Part shown: positions 46 to 7,036 of the stretch, in pieces | How the letters are laid out: the number at the start of each line of letters is the position of its first letter | Position numbering within the stretch: position 1 is the first letter of the stretch | Source of the DNA: a virus | Length of the DNA: 10,525 nt | UHGV virus genome: UHGV-1717814 | Strand: one strand, 5' to 3' | Program-made: the position numbers and the translations under genes | The notes under the pieces: generated by a model | Databases searched by the model: none | Seen by the model: only the letters and a program-made list of their open reading frames with translations | Told to the model about the DNA's origin: nothing

Positions 46-122
46 GTGGCATTAGCTCAGTTGGACAGAGCAACCGCCTTCTAAGCGGTTGGTCGCAGGT
101 TCGAATCCTGCATGCCACGCCA
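46..122 (+). tRNA. tRNA-Arg, anticodon UCU (reads AGA)
   Basis: 77 nt. Acceptor stem GTGGCAT (46-52) pairs with ATGCCAC (112-118), discriminator G119, CCA 120-122. D-stem GCTC/GAGC, anticodon stem ACCGC/GCGGT with 7-nt loop CTTCTAA (anticodon TCT at 80-82), T-arm GCAGG-TTCGAAT-CCTGC. Fold worked out by hand, not with a tRNA scanner. Confidence 0.85.
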
Positions 123-325: not shown

Positions 326-697
326 ATGAGTGACAAAGACATTGAATCTGAAATTCAGGCTAAAGGTTTAGCCGCGCCGCGCGTTACGCCAGACCATATC
401 GAGAGCATTATTGCTCAGGAGGCATATTTCACAGCAGAAGATGGTGTCTTTGGCGTAGCCATAAAAGCGAAACATACTGGCGGAGAGGTAAACTACCAGC
501 CGCACGAATCACTTTCTCTGCTGACATTCTGCGTTCTGGTGCTGCGCAACGGCTTCACCGTCACCGGAGAGAGCGCCTGTGCAAGCCCGGAAAACTTTGA
601 TGCGGAAATTGGTCGGAAGATTGCCCGGCAGAATGCTGTAAACAAAATCTGGATGCTTGAAGGTTACTTGCTGAAGCAGAAGTTAAGCGAGCAATAA
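326..697 (+). CDS. Small phage-associated protein, 123 aa; tentatively N4 gp49 / Sf6 gp66-like family
   Basis: ATG at 326 with GGTGAG 9 nt upstream; TAA at 695-697; followed by a terminator. Family assignment is from memory and not verified. Confidence 0.6.
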   Translation: MSDKDIESEIQAKGLAAPRVTPDHIESIIAQEAYFTAEDGVFGVAIKAKHTGGEVNYQPHESLSLLTFCVLVLRNGFTVTGESACASPENFDAEIGRKIARQNAVNKIWMLEGYLLKQKLSEQ

Positions 698-700
698 CCC

Positions 701-714
701 CGTGACATGTCACA
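701..714. repeat. 14-mer CGTGACATGTCACA, copy 1 (core is the 12-bp perfect palindrome GTGACATGTCAC)
   Basis: Read directly; an identical 14-mer is at 2966-2979. Confidence 0.8.
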
Positions 715-717
715 AAC

Positions 718-746
718 AGCCAGCCGATGAGCTGGCTTTGTTTTAT
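718..746 (+). terminator. Rho-independent terminator between the convergent 326-697 gene and terL
   Basis: AGCCAGC (718-724), loop cgatga, GCTGGCT (731-737), then TTGTTTTAT. Sits in the convergent intergenic gap; the T-run on the opposite strand is weak. Confidence 0.5.
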
Positions 747-2263: not shown

Positions 2264-2856
2264 TGATTACCATCCTGACGTTCTTTGAGTCGCTTCCTGG
2301 CTGCTGCTATGCGATCAGCAATTGTCACATTCACATTAACATCCAGACGTTCTTTGAACGCGTTGACATCAACATGCTTACCAATCAGTTCTAGGTTCTT
2401 CACCTTGTCAGGCCATTTAATTTTTTTGAGGATTGTCTCTATCGAATCCTCGTTCATGTTCATGATGGTCGATGACAGATCAAAGCCACTAAGCGTAGTG
2501 CGCCAGATTTTCGGCCACTCACGGATTGGTTTAAGGCTCCCATCGTCGTTGAGGATATCGATCACGTCCATCTGGTCGATCTCCACCAAGCGCATGAGAA
2601 CGTAATCAGCACTGACGCGCATTCGTTTGTTGCGCTCCTCCATCAACTCGGCAATCCGTTTTTGAATGCGTTCATCGCGCATCATGACACTGGCTTTAAC
2701 TGCCGCTGTATTTGGGGAGAATCCTGCGTTAATCGCTGCCTGAGTCTGGTTTTCAGGCGTTTTGATGTATGACTGGCAATAAGCCTCCTGCATTGCTGTG
2801 AGCGGCTTAAATTGCGTTGATTTGCGTTTATAGGTTTTAGGTTCAGCAGGCATCAT
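2260..2856 (-). CDS. terS: Terminase small subunit, about 198 aa
   Basis: LTAMQEAYCQSYI...AAINAGFSPNTAAVKAS...RIQKRIAELMEER matches the pattern I recall for phage terminase small subunits. The ORF-track start at 2934 is a TTG extension overlapping a terminator hairpin; I place the start at the tandem ATGs 2854-2856 / 2851-2853, preceded by GGTGG. Confidence 0.8.
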   Translation of the reverse strand: MMPAEPKTYKRKSTQFKPLTAMQEAYCQSYIKTPENQTQAAINAGFSPNTAAVKASVMMRDERIQKRIAELMEERNKRMRVSADYVLMRLVEIDQMDVIDILNDDGSLKPIREWPKIWRTTLSGFDLSSTIMNMNEDSIETILKKIKWPDKVKNLELIGKHVDVNAFKERLDVNVNVTIADRIAAARKRLKERQDGNQ

Positions 2857-2865
2857 AACCACCGT

Positions 2866-2895
2866 GGTAATAGTTACCGTTGTGGTAATAGTACC
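2866..2895. promoter_or_regulatory. Palindrome cluster directly upstream of terS: perfect TTACC-gttgt-GGTAA (2874-2888) flanked by extra GGTAA / TACC half-sites
   Basis: Read directly; same motif as at the immunity region. Lies between the terminator (2899-2925) and the terS start codon. Confidence 0.45.
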
Positions 2896-2898
2896 ATG

Positions 2899-2925
2899 CA
2901 AAATAAAGCCGCCATAGTTGGCGGC
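2899..2925 (-). terminator. Rho-independent terminator upstream of terS (minus-strand sense)
   Basis: GCCGCCA (2908-2914) pairs with TGGCGGC (2919-2925), loop TAGT. On the minus strand the hairpin is followed by TTTATTT (complement of 2901-2907). Confidence 0.55.
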
Positions 2926-2965: not shown

Positions 2966-2979
2966 CGTGACATGTCACA
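2966..2979. repeat. 14-mer CGTGACATGTCACA, copy 2
   Basis: Identical to 701-714. Overlaps the stop codon of the 2975-3322 ORF and lies about 40 nt upstream (in transcription sense) of the terS-proximal terminator. Confidence 0.8.
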
Positions 2980-3322
2980 CTATTAATTTCGTTTCATGCC
3001 AGCCTTTAGTCACCCAGCATTGCGAGTCACCATTACACGGGCATGAATTAACTGGAACTCTCTCGCCGCACTTACCGCAACGTTTTCTGCTGATCGATTT
3101 TATACGCCCGCGCACACGTGCATCATCCTGGCGGATCAGCAGCGCGATGTACTCGGCCATTTCATAGGGATCGCGACCAGGGCGCCGGGCGGCGCAGTTC
3201 CGCGCCAGCATTTCCTGCTCCTGCTTATCCAGCACCAGTTCAATTTTGCGCTCACCGGCGGCGGACTGCCGAGCGCGCTGCGCGGCTTTGCGTTCTGCGG
3301 GGGATTTAGCCACGAATCGCAC
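2975..3322 (-). CDS. Hypothetical basic protein (about 112-115 aa) with C-terminal Cys cluster CGKCG...CPCNGDSQC; possible DNA-binding regulator
   Basis: Long ORF on the operon strand. Start is uncertain: GTG at 3320-3322 or GTG at 3311-3313, which has GGAG 8 nt upstream. Function is inferred only from composition and position. Confidence 0.4.
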   Translation of the reverse strand: MRFVAKSPAERKAAQRARQSAAGERKIELVLDKQEQEMLARNCAARRPGRDPYEMAEYIALLIRQDDARVRGRIKSISRKRCGKCGERVPVNSCPCNGDSQCWVTKGWHETKLIV

Positions 3323-3428
3323 TCCACGCCAGATTGATTAATGACTCCCAGGTAATATAAACCCGGATACCAGCAGCCAGGCCGAAACCAATCACCATGG
3401 CATAAAGCAGAGCGTTGCACTTGTTCAT
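3306..3428 (-). CDS. 40-aa hydrophobic peptide (MNKCNALLYAMVIGFGLAAGIRVYITWESLINLAWSAIRG), putative small membrane protein
   Basis: Below the ORF-track size cut-off. ATG overlaps the stop of the upstream gene (TGATG) and GGAGGTGA lies upstream. Overlaps the start region of the 2975-3322 ORF, so one of the two models is probably wrong. Confidence 0.35.
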   Translation of the reverse strand: MNKCNALLYAMVIGFGLAAGIRVYITWESLINLAWSAIRG

Positions 3429-4195
3429 CACTTCACCTCCTGCGGCGGTTCTGGTAGCGGCATCCAGTGGGTTACATTGCGGCTCTGCGTTTCGAAGAAC
3501 TCCTCACCATTGCGGACGACATCAAAAAATTCACCGTCTCGATATTGCGCATAAAGAACGAATGCGCTATCACATAAAATAATTACGTGCTGACCATCAT
3601 CAGGCATTCGCTCACTACAGCTTATCCAACCATCCGGAGTAACCGGATAGTTGCCATTCACAAGGTCAGCTCGAACATATAGCGTGTCATCATGGTGCTG
3701 ATTGTGGCTGCACCACGTTAATTCGCTTAACTCGCCATCTTCTGGCCATACTCCAGCCGTTTGCAGCCAGATATGGGCTGGCGCATCTTGGCAAGGTGTA
3801 TTAACTGGCAACTTGTAAGTTTGGCTTACAGGTTCGGCACCATGAAGCATGGCGGCGCGGCAGGCATTCCAGCCTGTAGCGTATGCAGCCGCTTTGCTGC
3901 TGCCTTCAACTGGCGCATCCTGCCAATACATTTCTTCCGGCACTACCTGCACCTGAGGGGTGGCGTAGAGTGGAATTCCTCCCCCTCCACCAGAAAATTC
4001 ATTGCGAGCGTTATACTCACGACCATCTGCGTCATCACGCATCCACGCCACCGGTTCTGCTTCCAGCGATGCCAGCGCGATACGAAACACATTGGCAAGC
4101 AGGCTGTCTGAAGATTGGTTATCGTGCGCCGGGTCGCTCAGGAAGCCTGTGATGAATGATTTAATCTCCGCACGTTCTTTGGTAATAGTGGTCAT
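3428..4195 (-). CDS. DUF551-like phage protein, 255 aa
   Basis: C-terminal segment WISCSERMPDDGQHVIIL...HWMPLPEPP resembles the DUF551 signature as I recall it; N-terminal part is joined by a GGGGG linker. AAGGAG 8 nt upstream of the ATG at 4193-4195. Confidence 0.7.
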   Translation of the reverse strand: MTTITKERAEIKSFITGFLSDPAHDNQSSDSLLANVFRIALASLEAEPVAWMRDDADGREYNARNEFSGGGGGIPLYATPQVQVVPEEMYWQDAPVEGSSKAAAYATGWNACRAAMLHGAEPVSQTYKLPVNTPCQDAPAHIWLQTAGVWPEDGELSELTWCSHNQHHDDTLYVRADLVNGNYPVTPDGWISCSERMPDDGQHVIILCDSAFVLYAQYRDGEFFDVVRNGEEFFETQSRNVTHWMPLPEPPQEVK

Positions 4196-4205
4196 GTGTT
4201 ACTCC

Positions 4206-4469
4206 TTAACCCGCAGTGCTTTCAACTGATGAGGGGAATAAAATCTTTTCATCAAATCCGGCATTCATATCATGGACAGCAACACACCAATCCATCGACG
4301 AACGATTATCAAGAGCCTCCATGATTTCATCCATGCGGCGCAGGTCATACAGGTAAATGCTTTTATCGCCAATGGTGTAAAAACCAATTTTTTTCGGTGA
4401 TGGGCAGCGATCAAGAACGTCCTGTAATTCGTTCAACCATGCCTGTTCTTTTTTTGTCAAAGTTGCCAT
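4206..4469 (-). CDS. Hypothetical protein, 87 aa (possibly extended to the GTG at 4544)
   Basis: ATG at 4467-4469 with TAAGGAAAA upstream; stop overlaps the DUF551-like gene's SD. The upstream extension encodes FAKSPARRK, similar to the N-terminus of the 2975-3322 ORF, so the longer form cannot be excluded. Confidence 0.55.
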   Translation of the reverse strand: MATLTKKEQAWLNELQDVLDRCPSPKKIGFYTIGDKSIYLYDLRRMDEIMEALDNRSSMDWCVAVHDMNAGFDEKILFPSSVESTAG

Positions 4470-4470
4470 A

Positions 4471-4662
4471 TCAGTTTTCCTTATTAATGCGACAGTGGTT
4501 TTTCCAGCGGTTTTGCGCCGCGCTGGGCTTTTTGCAAAAACCACAATCCATCATCCCGTAATATTTCATCAACCCCATCCGTCGGTTGCTGAGTCTCACC
4601 CACTGCCAGACGCCAGGAGCGTTTCTACGAACTAACAGAATCTTTGCTTTACGGTTTTTCAT
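4471..4662 (-). CDS. Micro-ORF, 63 aa, basic (MKNRKAK...)
   Basis: ATG at 4660-4662 overlaps the stop of the upstream micro-ORF (ATGA); its own stop is 1 nt from the next ATG. No family recognised. Confidence 0.3.
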   Translation of the reverse strand: MKNRKAKILLVRRNAPGVWQWVRLSNRRMGLMKYYGMMDCGFCKKPSAAQNRWKNHCRINKEN

Positions 4663-4835
4663 CTTACAGCGTACCCTTTCTTCCGCCTGTTCTGTGACGC
4701 AGTAGGCTTACGCTTTGCGGCAAAAGCCACCTGACCAAATGGATGGAGTACCGCTATCTTATGGTTGCTAATAACCAGCTCCACCACACGCACAGGTCGC
4801 TGTAAAAAAAGTCGTTTTGCCTTACGGTTTTTCAT
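4659..4835 (-). CDS. Micro-ORF, 58 aa, basic (MKNRKAKRLF...)
   Basis: ATGA coupling at both ends; shares a near-identical 23-nt start region with the 4471-4662 ORF. Confidence 0.25.
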   Translation of the reverse strand: MKNRKAKRLFLQRPVRVVELVISNHKIAVLHPFGQVAFAAKRKPTASQNRRKKGYAVR

Positions 4836-5008
4836 CGCTTTGCTCTCCTGCGTCTCTTTGCTGCTCGTCGTGCCGCTGCAATACCGGTATGGCGGCGCTT
4901 TGGTGCCGGGATGATGTTGTCAGCCATCAGGACATACGGCTTTGCAATTAGCGCAGAAGCCCAAAAACGAGTCGGGTACGGTAACAAGCCGATACATGCC
5001 ACACGCAT
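4832..5008 (-). CDS. Micro-ORF, 58 aa, very basic C-terminus (MRVACIGLL...RRAAKRRRRAKR)
   Basis: ATG overlaps the TAA of the Ea22-like gene (TAATG) with AGGAGG 6 nt upstream; stop overlaps the next ATG. Confidence 0.35.
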   Translation of the reverse strand: MRVACIGLLPYPTRFWASALIAKPYVLMADNIIPAPKRRHTGIAAARRAAKRRRRAKR

Positions 5009-5769
5009 TACTCACCTCCTTTGATGCGAATGCCTGCAGCGCGGATTGCAGCGATGACTTCAGAAACTTTGTATGCCATTACCGTTTGGTAATCATCGTG
5101 AAAATCTGTTCGATGAAGCATGCTGCTACGTTCCGGGAGCGATATTTCCCGAGCATCCAGTTCCTTAACGCGTTCCTCCAGTTCGTAGACCCTGCATTGT
5201 TCTCTATCATCAATCAGATATAACCCAAGACATTCGCTTTCTACCCAACCGCCAAAATCATGATCGTAACGCTCACATGAAAACTCACCGTCACCGTCCT
5301 TTGTTGGAATGGTGTAACTATCTAATGGGCCACCATATGTCGGCACATTTCCCAATGTTGGATGCTCAATCCACATGAAAAATGCACGTCCGGTTATTGG
5401 GCAAATATCTGGCCGCCATTGGTTACGAACAGCCTTGGTTTCGGATAATTCTTCAGCGTGTTGTTTTACTTCCTCAAGCTCAACTCTCAGCTTCCCTACC
5501 GTTAGCGCAATATCCTCGTTCTCCTGATCGCGGCGTTTTATGTATTGCTGGTTTCTTTCCCGTTCATCCAGAAGCGCCAAGACGGTAGCCGGATTGGCTG
5601 CGGCGATGAATTCAGCATCACGAGATTCGTTTTCACTGAACACCATAGCTATTTGCTCATGGTTTATGCCGTCAGTGGAGTAAATCTCATCGTCGAATTC
5701 AACAGCCCACTTACCTTTCGTAGCCTTCTCTGCCGCCTCACGCAGTGCCTGATAGTCAATCTTGCTCAC
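5008..5769 (-). CDS. Ead/Ea22-like protein, 253 aa
   Basis: N-terminus MSKIDYQALREAAEKATKGKW matches the recalled Ea22-like signature of lambdoid prophages. GTG start at 5767-5769 with AAGGAGG 6 nt upstream. Confidence 0.7.
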   Translation of the reverse strand: MSKIDYQALREAAEKATKGKWAVEFDDEIYSTDGINHEQIAMVFSENESRDAEFIAAANPATVLALLDERERNQQYIKRRDQENEDIALTVGKLRVELEEVKQHAEELSETKAVRNQWRPDICPITGRAFFMWIEHPTLGNVPTYGGPLDSYTIPTKDGDGEFSCERYDHDFGGWVESECLGLYLIDDREQCRVYELEERVKELDAREISLPERSSMLHRTDFHDDYQTVMAYKVSEVIAAIRAAGIRIKGGE

Positions 5770-6691: not shown

Positions 6692-7036
6692 TCAGAAATC
6701 TTCGATGTTCCAGCCACCACCTGCTTTCTTTGGTTTAACCGTTACCCCGATGATTCGGAACGGATACTGATCTGCGGCGACTTTGGTTTTCACCCTGGCG
6801 TCGTCGGTCCAGAAACCTTTCACTTCGTGCAGTTCCATCTCGCCGGTGGCGAGCATCACAGCGAAATCTGGCGTATAGAACGTGTTATTAGCTAACCGCA
6901 GCTTGATACCCTCGAATCGATACCAGGCGATTTCCCCTGCACGTTTACGCTGCTCAAGGTGCTGGCAATACGCAGATTCTGTTTTGTTCATCTGGCCTGT
7001 TTTGAGTCGACCAAGAGCCTGCATCTGTTTTCTCAT
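6692..7036 (-). CDS. Small PD-(D/E)xK-like nuclease-fold protein, 114 aa (DUF1064-like)
   Basis: Segment YTPDFAVMLATGEMELHEVKG contains a PD...(E)xK arrangement. ATG at 7034-7036 with GAGGT 5 nt upstream. Family assignment from memory. Confidence 0.6.
   Translation of the reverse strand: MRKQMQALGRLKTGQMNKTESAYCQHLEQRKRAGEIAWYRFEGIKLRLANNTFYTPDFAVMLATGEMELHEVKGFWTDDARVKTKVAADQYPFRIIGVTVKPKKAGGGWNIEDF

Follow-up and report, generated by a model that had tools for sequence, protein, structure and literature searches.

The locus studied here raises a double question: whether two open reading frames (ORFs) that share a short basic motif are related to each other, and what the product of the one lying directly upstream of the terS terminator does. 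Both ORFs (2975-3322 and 4206-4544) are present as listed on the minus strand of the window, i.e. the whole stretch of 10,525 nucleotides of virus genome UHGV-1717814 that was analysed. The sequence-only reading had suggested that they are diverged paralogues and that the 87-aa gene may start further upstream, at GTG 4544, and had speculated that the 2975-3322 protein is a late-gene regulator. The features on which the following argument relies are collected in Table 1.

Table 1. Features of the window, with coordinates, strand and the basis of each assignment
Feature	Position	Strand	Basis and remarks
Dyad 2, GTGACATGTCAC	702..713	.	exact copy; between the convergent terL and reversed p03-like gene
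Hairpin AGCCAGC-cgatga-GCTGGCT, then TTTGTTTT	718..745	+	sequence, terminator scan; phiV10 annotates a terminator
terL, 491 aa	788..2263	-	ORF list; annotated orthologues in phiV10, TL-2011b and epsilon15
terS, 197 aa	2260..2853	-	ATG 2853; Pfam Terminase_2, E = 1.4e-29, from residue 45
ATTACCACAACGGTAAC	2873..2889	-	fits ATTACC-N5-GGTAAT, which epsilon15 has annotated as 'repressor' operators
Intrinsic terminator	2898..2925	-	GCCGCCAACTATGGCGGC then TTTATTTTG; terminator scan
Dyad 1, GTGACATGTCAC	2967..2978	.	exact copy; overlaps the TGA stop of the regulator gene; probable operator of the regulator
Regulator gene, 112 aa, PHROG 536	2975..3313	-	orthologue of epsilon15 gp49 and phiV10 p55
87-aa gene, PHROG 1714	4206..4469	-	ATG 4469; PHROG 1714 1-87/87, E = 1.3e-50
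Spurious 'N-terminal extension'	4470..4544	-	last 25 codons of the 63-aa gene, out of frame
63-aa gene, PHROG 1380	4471..4662	-	PHROG 1380 matches 1-61/62, E = 9e-39
58-aa gene, PHROG 1380	4659..4835	-	tandem paralogue of the 63-aa gene; PHROG 1380, E = 6.5e-23

The gene next to the terminator matches the PHROG 536 profile over its full length (E = 5.5e-54; residues 5-114 aligned to positions 3-114 of the 115 in the profile), and the members of this family in phiV10, TL-2011b and epsilon15 occupy the same gene position as here. The label 'transcriptional regulator' that PHROG 536 carries is annotation only; the epsilon15 record notes gp49 as similar to N15 gp46. The second GTG (3313), which has GGAG 8 nt before it, is where the family begins (112 aa, M-AKSPAERK...), and not 3322 as had been assumed, so that the residues 'RF' are not in the protein.

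The AlphaFold2 model of the regulator (pLDDT 92) runs helix, extended segment, helix, helix, and the strand-helix-helix topology of ribbon-helix-helix (RHH) proteins is present in it. From this model the predicted layout is a basic helix (residues 5-18), an RHH domain (22-74), a Cys4 knuckle (C79, C82, C91/93 and C99) and a short C-terminal helix. The C-terminal Cys cluster that had been noticed in the translation proved real and conserved, C79 and C82 being invariant and C99 present in at least 90 % of members. Searched with curated RHH models, the window protein gave no Pfam match; when 56 regulator members were scanned against Pfam, RHH_5 matched two and RHH_1 one, all with E values of at least 0.013. 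Searches of the regulator against Pfam, NCBIfam and, with the single sequence, the PDB returned no matches, and Foldseek against the PDB and viral models gave no useful match apart from a fragment belonging to the family itself. The 2975-3313 product is, on its model, predicted to be a DNA-binding protein. The searchable literature held no experimental study of gp49 or p55 and no mention of the dyad described below; the ZX5 Uetakevirus paper concerns other regulators.

A target for this protein is suggested by the palindrome GTGACATGTCAC, a GTGAC-N2-GTCAC dyad. Its presence had been recognised correctly and its placement too loosely; the exact position is that of dyad 1 in Table 1. Strict dyads numbered 30 in 172 kb of gene-bearing loci, against 0.16 expected, and none was found in 443 kb of related phage DNA without the regulator gene; one control locus with a 36%-identical homologue had a dyad at the end of that homologue. 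The dyad stands at the stop codon of the regulator gene in 22 of 34 chromosomal loci and in 48 of the 71 distinct viral loci. Vibrio and Yersinia phages with homologues of 35-38% identity also have exact dyads. Across chromosomal and viral loci the half-sites are invariant and the two central bases freely variable; three single-base variants of the dyad were seen (two of them C-to-T), and about one quarter of the loci are without a dyad near the regulator gene. Because of this conserved co-occurrence, the dyad is very probably the regulator's site. A symmetric target of this kind is consistent with an RHH dimer, the structure having been predicted as a monomer only. The pairing of regulator and dyad is previously undescribed and is found in many temperate phages.

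The positions of the dyads follow a pattern. Dyad 2 begins 5 nt past the stop of the p03-like gene (326-697, plus strand) and ends 4 nt before that gene's terminator hairpin, which makes a good terminator for this plus-strand gene and a weaker one toward terL. The same position is also occupied in phiV10 (2262), in epsilon15 (2142) and in two further loci (L166 and L167). phiV10 and epsilon15 have three dyads at the same three boundaries, each adjoining a terminator. A crude scan placed 19 of 36 dyads next to a terminator, always in the order dyad, hairpin, T-run. Terminator adjacency was nonetheless rejected as a universal rule for the dyad, as it fails in Proteus-type and Vibrio loci, where the dyad lies just 5' of a ribosome-binding site without a terminator. 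All dyads fall between genes in stretches that are transcribed: some follow a stop codon and precede a terminator, and the others lie 10-19 nt ahead of a start codon.

At the regulator gene, the hairpin and T-run described earlier between this gene and terS (2925-2908/2898, minus strand) were confirmed. The early/accessory operon ends at this terminator, 41 nt past dyad 1; the records of phiV10 and epsilon15 annotate the same element as a terminator. ATTACCACAACGGTAAC is found between the terminator and the terS ATG; in the epsilon15 record, terS and two other late genes have predicted repressor operators a short way upstream, which suggests late units with their own promoters. The terS start itself was set by the length of the TL-2011b orthologue (594 nt, 197 aa), the listed terS ORF from TTG 2934 being over-extended across the terminator. 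The idea that the dyad is a physical genome end (cos) was also considered, the phiV10 record and four viral contigs ending at ...GTGTGA, inside the dyad. It was rejected: all truncated contigs end at some gene's stop codon, so that contig ends in the dyad reflect provirus trimming, and in the phiV10 record the sequence has just been opened behind the last gene.

The speculation on a late-gene regulator was borne out in part. The predicted DNA binding and, by co-occurrence, the link to the palindrome both stand; the late-gene role remains conjectural. The regulator gene of relatives is often away from terS and is then followed by integrase, DUF1367, Dam or toxin-antitoxin genes. We propose that the regulator most likely binds GTGAC-N2-GTCAC as a dimer, and that its basic helix and RHH strand would be placed in the major groove, by analogy with MatP on the near-identical matS; the Cys4 knuckle is presumably zinc-binding. 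One dyad overlaps the gene's own stop codon and others occupy short transcribed gaps where further operons end, and the bound protein could act on RNA polymerase crossing these boundaries. As a gate or insulator, it might thereby separate the packaging genes from the early/accessory operon, and convergent units from each other. We do not think that it is a classical promoter activator. Read in the direction of the T-run, the dyad comes before the terminator hairpin, which is not the arrangement of a classical roadblock terminator.

Other roles for the protein and its dyad were weighed. The 112-aa protein could be a lambda Q-like late switch of Uetakeviruses: bound at the dyad, of which the outer GTGACA would also serve as a -35 element, it would modify the RNA polymerase starting there so that transcription passes the terminator into terS-terL. 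The local order (last early-right gene, predicted site, terminator, terS) agrees with such a switch, as do a 9/12 promoter-like match in the window with GTGACA as -35, the arrangement GTGACA-17 nt-TAAATT just before the terminator in epsilon15, a dyad just upstream of terS in Vibrio phage K253 and the weak likeness of the Cys region to the RNAP-binding zinc finger of TraR/DksA (E = 0.03-0.06). A -10 element at promoter spacing, however, was found in 5 of 46 independent dyad contexts, vs 4.7% at random positions, and other dyads lie at operon ends or against a hairpin, with no room for a promoter. Moreover, the regulator gene is not before terS in many relatives, and the repressor operators of epsilon15 suggest separate late promoters. 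No Pfam or NCBIfam match linked the regulator to the Q family. We consider a late switch of this type unlikely. A promoter on the dyad was discarded as a general rule, the -10 not being enriched, and was kept as a local possibility only.

Alternatively, the role could be non-transcriptional, the protein organising phage DNA in the manner of MatP, or helping in packaging, by marking a few sites on the phage chromosome (for instance near the pac/cos region upstream of terS) for bridging, condensation or terminase assembly. The half-sites of the dyad are those of matS and the topology of the predicted reading head is that of MatP, sites number only about three per genome, a dyad closely precedes terS in two phage types that are unrelated, and a P2-like phage has tandem dyads between its early/accessory genes and the portal gene. 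This proposal has to contend with the profile comparison with MatP and the structural differences given below, with a spacer one base shorter, with the many loci that have a single dyad away from packaging genes, and with the explanation of contig ends in the dyad by provirus trimming. We judge it quite improbable.

A third possibility is that the element acts as RNA, i.e. that a small GUGA-CNNG-UCAC hairpin, placed in the 3' UTR or shortly before a ribosome-binding site, is bound by the arginine-rich N-terminal helix and alters termination, stability or translation. Lambda N binds boxB, and the lambda cro-nutR-tR1 layout resembles the placement of the dyads, all of which lie in transcribed intergenic RNA; two of the three single-base variants, being C-to-T, would keep G-U pairs. 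On the other side, the fold is predicted to be an RHH, which binds double-stranded DNA, the stem is only 4 bp long, and relatives down to 35% identity are without compensatory stem changes, the half-sites being invariant. Such invariance is the signature of a symmetric dimer that reads the bases of duplex DNA, and we regard an RNA target as very improbable.

There remains the supposed kinship of the regulator with the 87-aa gene. The letters AKSPAxRKxA are indeed common to both ORFs (16/37 identities; BLASTP E = 8e-4 for this single pair), and the local score of 48 was reached by 1 of 2000 residue shuffles. Nearly all of this signal comes from the 10 residues AKSPAxRKxA, which lie inside the putative extension. 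FAKSPA-x-RK-x-A and a K-x-EQ-x-x-L stretch had been described as shared; the AKSPAxRKxA part holds, and the K-x-EQ-x-x-L part taken alone is at chance level, 1534 of 2000 shuffles reaching its score. All non-overlapping pieces of 40 aa or more, taken from the six frames of the whole window, were compared all against all: six unrelated pairs also scored 48 or more. In residue-shuffled six-frame sets, each replicate yielded between 0 and 5 pairs of this kind, its highest score falling in the range 47-58. Once this search space is counted, the match between the two ORFs is not above chance.

Comparison at the family level led to the same separation. The sequence-only reading had itself named a lack of homology as telling against paralogy, and profile comparison and predicted folds find the two proteins unrelated: hhalign of the regulator family (56 sequences) against the 87-aa family (33 sequences) returned a probability of 1.5% over 18 columns. 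The regulator is modelled as a helix, an RHH domain and a zinc knuckle, and the 87-aa protein (AlphaFold2, pLDDT 89) as an alpha/beta H-E-E-H-H-E fold. The shared motif is kept in the regulator family, where R8 and R13 are nearly invariant; it is missing in 77 of 79 contexts of the 87-aa gene and falls outside the model of that family.

The start of the 87-aa gene points in the same direction. Of the extended ORF, PHROG 1714 matches residues 26-112 only, i.e. the 87 aa from ATG 4469, which does not fit the proposed start at GTG 4544, and family members are 87-88 aa long over many genera. ATG 4469 has AAGGA 9-13 nt upstream and forms a stop-start junction, TGATATG. Among 79 viral loci with an 87-aa gene at least 98% identical to this one, the AGGA...TGATATG junction precedes the gene in all 79, behind 26 distinct upstream sequences and varying upstream genes; AKSPA occurs upstream in two loci only, and 24 have no in-frame start codon at all there. 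ATG 4469 is the start of the gene, whose translation is probably coupled to that of the preceding gene through a modular Shine-Dalgarno/stop/start junction (AAGGAAAACTGATATG) that recurs wherever the 87-aa gene occurs. As a side observation, p51 of phiV10 overlaps p50 by 85 nt, and over-extension of the same kind may already stand in public records.

The stretch taken for an extension has another owner. The 63-aa ORF, previously viewed as a micro-ORF in conflict with a start at GTG 4544, is a full-length member of PHROG 1380 (Table 1). Its frame is open in all of 79 loci, with 10 protein variants, and the AKSPA string follows the 63-aa gene, appearing as an in-frame fusion to at least six unrelated downstream genes. 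The C-terminus of the 63-aa protein reads ...CKKPSAAQNRWKNH and the other frame AKSPARRK, the whole out-of-frame reading of 4470..4544 giving VFAKSPARRKTAGKTTVALIRKTD. The 58-aa gene is joined to the 63-aa gene by an ATGA overlap, and the two proteins align with a local score of 76, which none of 2000 shuffles reached (shuffle mean 22). This paralogue aligns across the AKSPA segment in the 63-aa frame (KKPSAAQNRWK / KRKPTASQNRRK); the same segment of the 58-aa gene read in the other frame gives LLPQSVSLL.... The sharing of AKSPAxRKxA is a coincidence, produced by reading the 3' end of the 63-aa gene out of frame. Judged by their alignment, the true paralogues here are the adjacent 63-aa and 58-aa genes.

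The earlier view of two diverged paralogues, with an 87-aa gene that runs from GTG 4544 as a 112-aa protein and overlaps or replaces the 63-aa micro-ORF, can draw on the single-pair BLASTP and shuffle values and on an extension frame that begins with GTG and is open in 79 of 79 loci carrying the 63-aa gene, but with family model and family length beginning at the ATG, 77 of 79 contexts of the 87-aa gene devoid of the extension, a conserved 63-aa family whose tandem paralogue is conserved in its own frame, a profile-profile probability of 1.5%, unlike folds and a score at six-frame chance level, we give it hardly any credence.

Considered as a whole, we are fairly confident that the motif is coincidental, that the two ORFs are unrelated, and that the product of 2975-3313 is a predicted DNA-binding protein whose most likely target is GTGAC-N2-GTCAC. 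With the paralogue reading, two unrelated genes would have been annotated as paralogues and a start codon would have been misplaced. A family labelled only 'transcriptional regulator' would now gain a target sequence that is precise and open to testing, is conserved in phages from Escherichia to Vibrio and stands at operon boundaries, that between early and late genes of epsilon15-like phages included; on late-gene control in these phages, the searchable literature yielded no published account. The near-identity of the dyad to matS further raises the questions of how an RHH head sets the spacing of its half-sites and of a possible cross-reaction between phage and host proteins.

Several known systems can be compared with the one proposed here. 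Relative to RHH regulators (CopG/Arc/Mnt/MetJ and the antitoxins TacA and ParD), the phage protein adds an N-terminal basic helix and a C-terminal zinc knuckle according to its model, and its predicted site is found at the gene's 3' end and not in a promoter upstream of it. With lambda Q, which has a zinc-binding motif, the window shares the order early gene, predicted site, terminator and late genes; there is no similarity of sequence or fold, and the phages have extra dyads at operon ends. The three best PDB sequence matches of the regulator family profile were TraR (two sequences) and YbiI, all weak (E = 0.03-0.06); with DksA, they belong to the C4 zinc-finger proteins that bind the secondary channel of RNA polymerase. 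The matches align over regulator residues 48-109 and have C-x2-C-G-x2-(I/L)-P in common with the regulator. The Cys spacing of the regulator differs from the C-x2-C-x17-C-x2-C motif of DksA/TraR, and no structural match was obtained.

A close parallel is MatP, the organiser of the Ter macrodomain in E. coli, which reads matS (GTGAC[AG]N[TC]GTCAC, consensus GTGACATTGTCAC) with alpha4 and beta1 (PMC3603311; PMC8669397). The predicted phage protein would use the same reading head, a basic helix plus a strand. Homology between the two was rejected and only the analogy retained: hhalign of the regulator family against E. coli MatP (sequence verified as identical to 4d8j_B) was not significant (probability 0.3%, E = 0.21), and MatP models were not among the Pfam families shown for regulator members. 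The four-helix bundle and coiled coil of MatP are lacking in the 112-aa phage protein, which is predicted to have a single helix before the RHH and the Cys4 knuckle after it. A bolder version, which we put forward as a doubtful conjecture, would make it a widespread phage 'mini-MatP' on a one-base-shorter matS, whose TraR/DksA-like knuckle engages RNA polymerase passing the site, i.e. a DNA-tethered elongation or termination factor; if true, such a factor in the temperate phages of enterobacteria and vibrios would set operon boundaries or open the one between early and late genes. As to the sites, the phage dyad equals E. coli matS minus one central base, with identical half-sites and a spacer of 2 nt instead of 3. 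This 2-nt spacer characterises the gene-linked sites, a single 13-bp GTGAC-RNY-GTCAC site having been seen, in Vibrio phage K253 only. Finally, matS occurs as 23 sites in an 800-kb chromosomal domain, whereas the phage dyads number about three per 39-kb genome and stand at operon ends.

The window comes from an epsilon15/phiV10-like (Uetakevirus) prophage and spans the border at which the early-right/accessory genes meet the packaging genes. At the DNA level it is closest to phages TL-2011b and phiV10, which share its gene order, and to accessory regions of Stx phages; all genes of interest lie on the minus strand. The true ATG of terS is at 2853: the mechanical ORF (TTG 2934) runs 27 codons further upstream, across the terminator hairpin, and longest-ORF automatic annotation would misplace this start. 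In the phiV10 record itself, terS is 675 nt long. A tRNA-Arg gene (anticodon TCT; 46-122, plus strand, opposite to the late genes) lies at the window's left end and overlaps listed ORFs 52-342 and 89-268.

Features of the window (genes in the order read along the minus strand), dyad sites in phiV10 and epsilon15, and segments of the regulator
Feature	Position	Strand	Remark
Ead/Ea22 gene	5008-5769	minus	
Three small genes	4832-5008, 4659-4835 (58 aa), 4471-4662 (63 aa)	minus	
87-aa gene	4206-4469	minus	
DUF551 gene	3428-4195	minus	
41-aa membrane-protein gene	3306-3431	minus	
Regulator gene	2975-3313	minus	
Dyad copy 1	2967-2978		exact GTGACATGTCAC; overlaps regulator's TGA
Terminator	between regulator gene and terS	minus	
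Operator-like ATTACCACAACGGTAAC	2873-2889	minus	matches ATTACC-N5-GGTAAT of epsilon15
terS	2260-2853	minus	
terL	788-2263	minus	
Dyad copy 2	702-713		exact GTGACATGTCAC; between terL and reversed gene
Reversed Sf6-gp66-like gene	326-697	plus	
Site 1 (phiV10, epsilon15)	regulator stop codon		22-41 nt before terminator closing early-right operon
Site 2 (phiV10, epsilon15)	between convergent terL and p03/p50		against their shared hairpin
Site 3 (phiV10, epsilon15)	at/over stop codon of long structural operon's last gene		1-2 nt before terminator
Basic helix	residues 5-18		R8, R13 nearly invariant; AlphaFold2 model and alignment
Extended segment	residues 19-29		AlphaFold2 model
Helices	residues 30-42 and 52-74		AlphaFold2 model
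Cys knuckle	C79, C82, C99		fourth Cys at 91/93
Short C-terminal helix			AlphaFold2 model

The palindrome GTGAC-N2-GTCAC (the dyad), present in the window as exactly two copies of GTGACATGTCAC, tracks the regulator gene through evolution. Among 34 chromosomal loci with homologues 52-88% identical, 30 strict dyads were found in 172 kb against 0.16 expected, and at 22 of these loci a dyad lies within a few nt of the regulator stop codon. It stands at the stop codon for 48 of 71 distinct viral homologues (35-81% identical), and within about 200 nt of it for some others. The control set comprised 160 loci of related phages: the dyad was absent from the 159 without the regulator gene (443 kb), and the remaining locus encodes a 36%-identical homologue, with GTGACTGGTCAC at the end of that gene. 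Vibrio phage K253 (homologue 35% identical) carries three exact dyads in 23.7 kb. In a P2-like Yersinia phage (homologue 38% identical) two copies lie in tandem, of which one is exact and the other deviates at one position. The half-sites never vary and the two central bases are free (AT, AG, GG, CT, CC, AA, TG, CG, AC, GT), a pattern that would be expected of a symmetric dimer reading duplex DNA. That the regulator is a DNA-binding protein with the dyad as its target is a well-supported prediction. In three Xenorhabdus loci (L186, L191, L192), the dyad is missing and replaced, after the regulator stop, by an inverted repeat with 16-nt arms and TATAAT, preceding a 92-aa and a 95-aa ORF; the insert looks like a toxin-antitoxin-like cassette with its own operator.

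The regulator is a member of PHROG 536 (E = 5.5e-54), orthologous to phiV10 p55 and epsilon15 gp49. Because most relatives are 112 aa long and begin M-A/P-K-S/T, its predicted start is GTG 3313 (GGAG 8 nt upstream), not GTG 3322. With 151 clusters at 50% identity, the family is of modest size; it had been catalogued previously and is uncharacterised. A literature search found no paper studying gp49/p55 or mentioning the dyad, and Pfam, NCBIfam and PDB sequence searches with the regulator gave no match. When the family profile was compared with PDB sequences, the top three were TraR (two sequences) and YbiI (E = 0.03-0.06), DksA/TraR-type zinc fingers whose weak likeness is a lead only. The C-terminal Cys cluster noticed in the sequence-only reading is borne out, C79 and C82 being invariant and C99 conserved in at least 90% of the family.

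That reading had also suggested that the regulator and the 87-aa protein are diverged paralogues. The two are not related: an hhalign-type profile-profile comparison (alignments of 56 and 33 members, respectively) gave 1.5% probability over 18 columns, and the AlphaFold2 models, both of high confidence (pLDDT 92 and 89), differ in architecture. The shared string does exist (16/37 residues identical by BLASTP, E = 8e-4 for the single pair; local score 48, reached by 1 of 2000 shuffles), although only at chance level. Its score is due to AKSPAxRKxA; the second block, K-x-EQ-x-x-L, is unremarkable, being matched by 1534 of 2000 shuffles. All six-frame pieces of the window were compared pairwise, mirroring the free choice of pieces in the original observation: six unrelated non-overlapping pairs scored at least 48, and each shuffled set contained 0-5 such pairs (highest scores 47-58). 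Because these controls give equal scores, the AKSPA match is the expected best chance hit in 10.5 kb.

Four independent lines agree that the real frame at 4471-4544 is that of the 63-aa gene, and the start proposed for the 87-aa gene at GTG 4544 is contradicted by its profile, its junction and the rarity of AKSPA. PHROG 1714 covers residues 26-112 only of the extended ORF, i.e. 87/87 profile positions from ATG 4469, and the 63-aa ORF belongs to PHROG 1380 over its whole length (E = 9e-39). The 87-aa gene is a mobile cassette: at 79 viral loci carrying it at ≥ 98% identity, compared for upstream context, it is preceded by 26 different sequences, which derive from several unrelated genes. The AGGA...TGATATG junction is found at all 79, AKSPA upstream at two only, and 24 have no in-frame upstream start codon at all. 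Its family keeps a length of 87-88 aa from Escherichia to Edwardsiella and Pectobacterium. The AKSPA reading is a property of the upstream 63-aa gene, whose alternative frame reads VVFAKSPARRKTAGKTT... at 79/79 loci with that gene and continues into whichever gene comes next (at least six unrelated proteins). The 63-aa gene has a diverged tandem paralogue in the 58-aa gene (score 76, shuffle mean 22, 0/2000 shuffles); read in the 63-aa frame, the two align across the contested stretch (KKPSAAQNRWK / KRKPTASQNRRK), and the 58-aa copy in the other frame reads LLPQSVSLLRH. A start at 4544 would require a 74-nt overlap; the small genes are linked through ATGA (as from the 58-aa to the 63-aa gene, minus strand) or TGATATG overlaps, the usual layout in translational coupling. 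Neither the paralogy nor the alternative start is real. Both PHROG 1380 genes start MKNRKAK and share a tail K-x-P-S/T-A-x-QNR-x-K. In the phiV10 RefSeq record (L002, 37220-37590), p51 (90 aa), noted as p50-like, shares 85 nt with p50 and may have an over-extended N-terminus like the one suggested for the 87-aa gene.

Three intergenic dyads occupy the same places in phiV10 and epsilon15. A crude scan found a terminator at 19 of 36 dyads, always in the order stop codon, dyad, hairpin, T-run; terminators are not universal beside dyads. In Proteus/Providencia-type prophages and K253, the dyad precedes the next start codon by 10-19 nt, just 5' of the Shine-Dalgarno, and in K253 the genes so preceded include terS. 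Constant across loci are co-occurrence with the regulator gene and location in short transcribed gaps. At L164, L165 and about 35 viral loci (e.g. L212, L221, L223), a small cassette is inserted between dyad and terS; it carries a promoter of its own (TTGACT...GATTAT) and a sequence resembling a LexA box, TACTGT-N8-ACAGTA, and looks like an SOS-controlled moron.

The main rival to the function we favour is a lambda-Q-like late switch, with which the window order (last early gene, site, terminator, terS) agrees; GTGACA is usable as a -35, with a 9/12 promoter-like match in the window, and epsilon15 has GTGACA-17-TAAATT. However, of 46 independent contexts only 5 have a -10 element at the distance a promoter needs (4.7% for random positions), no promoter fits at the other dyads, and in many relatives integrase, DUF1367, Dam methylase, HNH or toxin-antitoxin genes follow the regulator. 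Predicted repressor operators also suggest separate late promoters downstream of the terminator: the epsilon15 record places ATTACC-N5-GGTAAT just ahead of terS, gp3 and the tail-fibre gene, with the same type annotated in the immunity region, and two ATTACC repeats at 2851-2897 (minus) between terminator and terS ATG suggest that the prophage repressor directly controls the late units. Given these four results against a switch, we favour a gate or insulator, and infer that the bound regulator would act at operon boundaries on the polymerase. Lesser rivals are a role at the RNA level and a MatP-like part in DNA organisation or packaging. The dyad as a cos end was rejected, contigs ending inside it reflecting trimming at gene ends.

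In E. coli, matS (GTGAC[AG]N[TC]GTCAC, consensus GTGACATTGTCAC) is read by a MatP dimer that inserts alpha4 and beta1 in the major groove (PMC3603311, PMC3116907, PMC8669397), and Escherichia and Salmonella prophages are reported to avoid this site (PMC3603311). In K253 (L282), a 13-bp matS-type site, GTGACACCGTCAC (6763-6775), occurs besides the three 12-bp dyads, overlapping a gene's stop codon, with a terminator next. The phage dyad is the matS consensus less one central base, and the head of the phage protein is a basic helix followed by a strand, as in MatP; its remaining architecture is unlike MatP's, and hhalign of the regulator family against MatP gave 0.3% probability. The likeness is a mechanistic analogy, not family membership. 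With its matS-like sequence and its placement at the 3' end of genes, this conserved and directly testable protein-site pair is a variant on a familiar theme, the ribbon-helix-helix (RHH) regulator paired with a palindromic operator.
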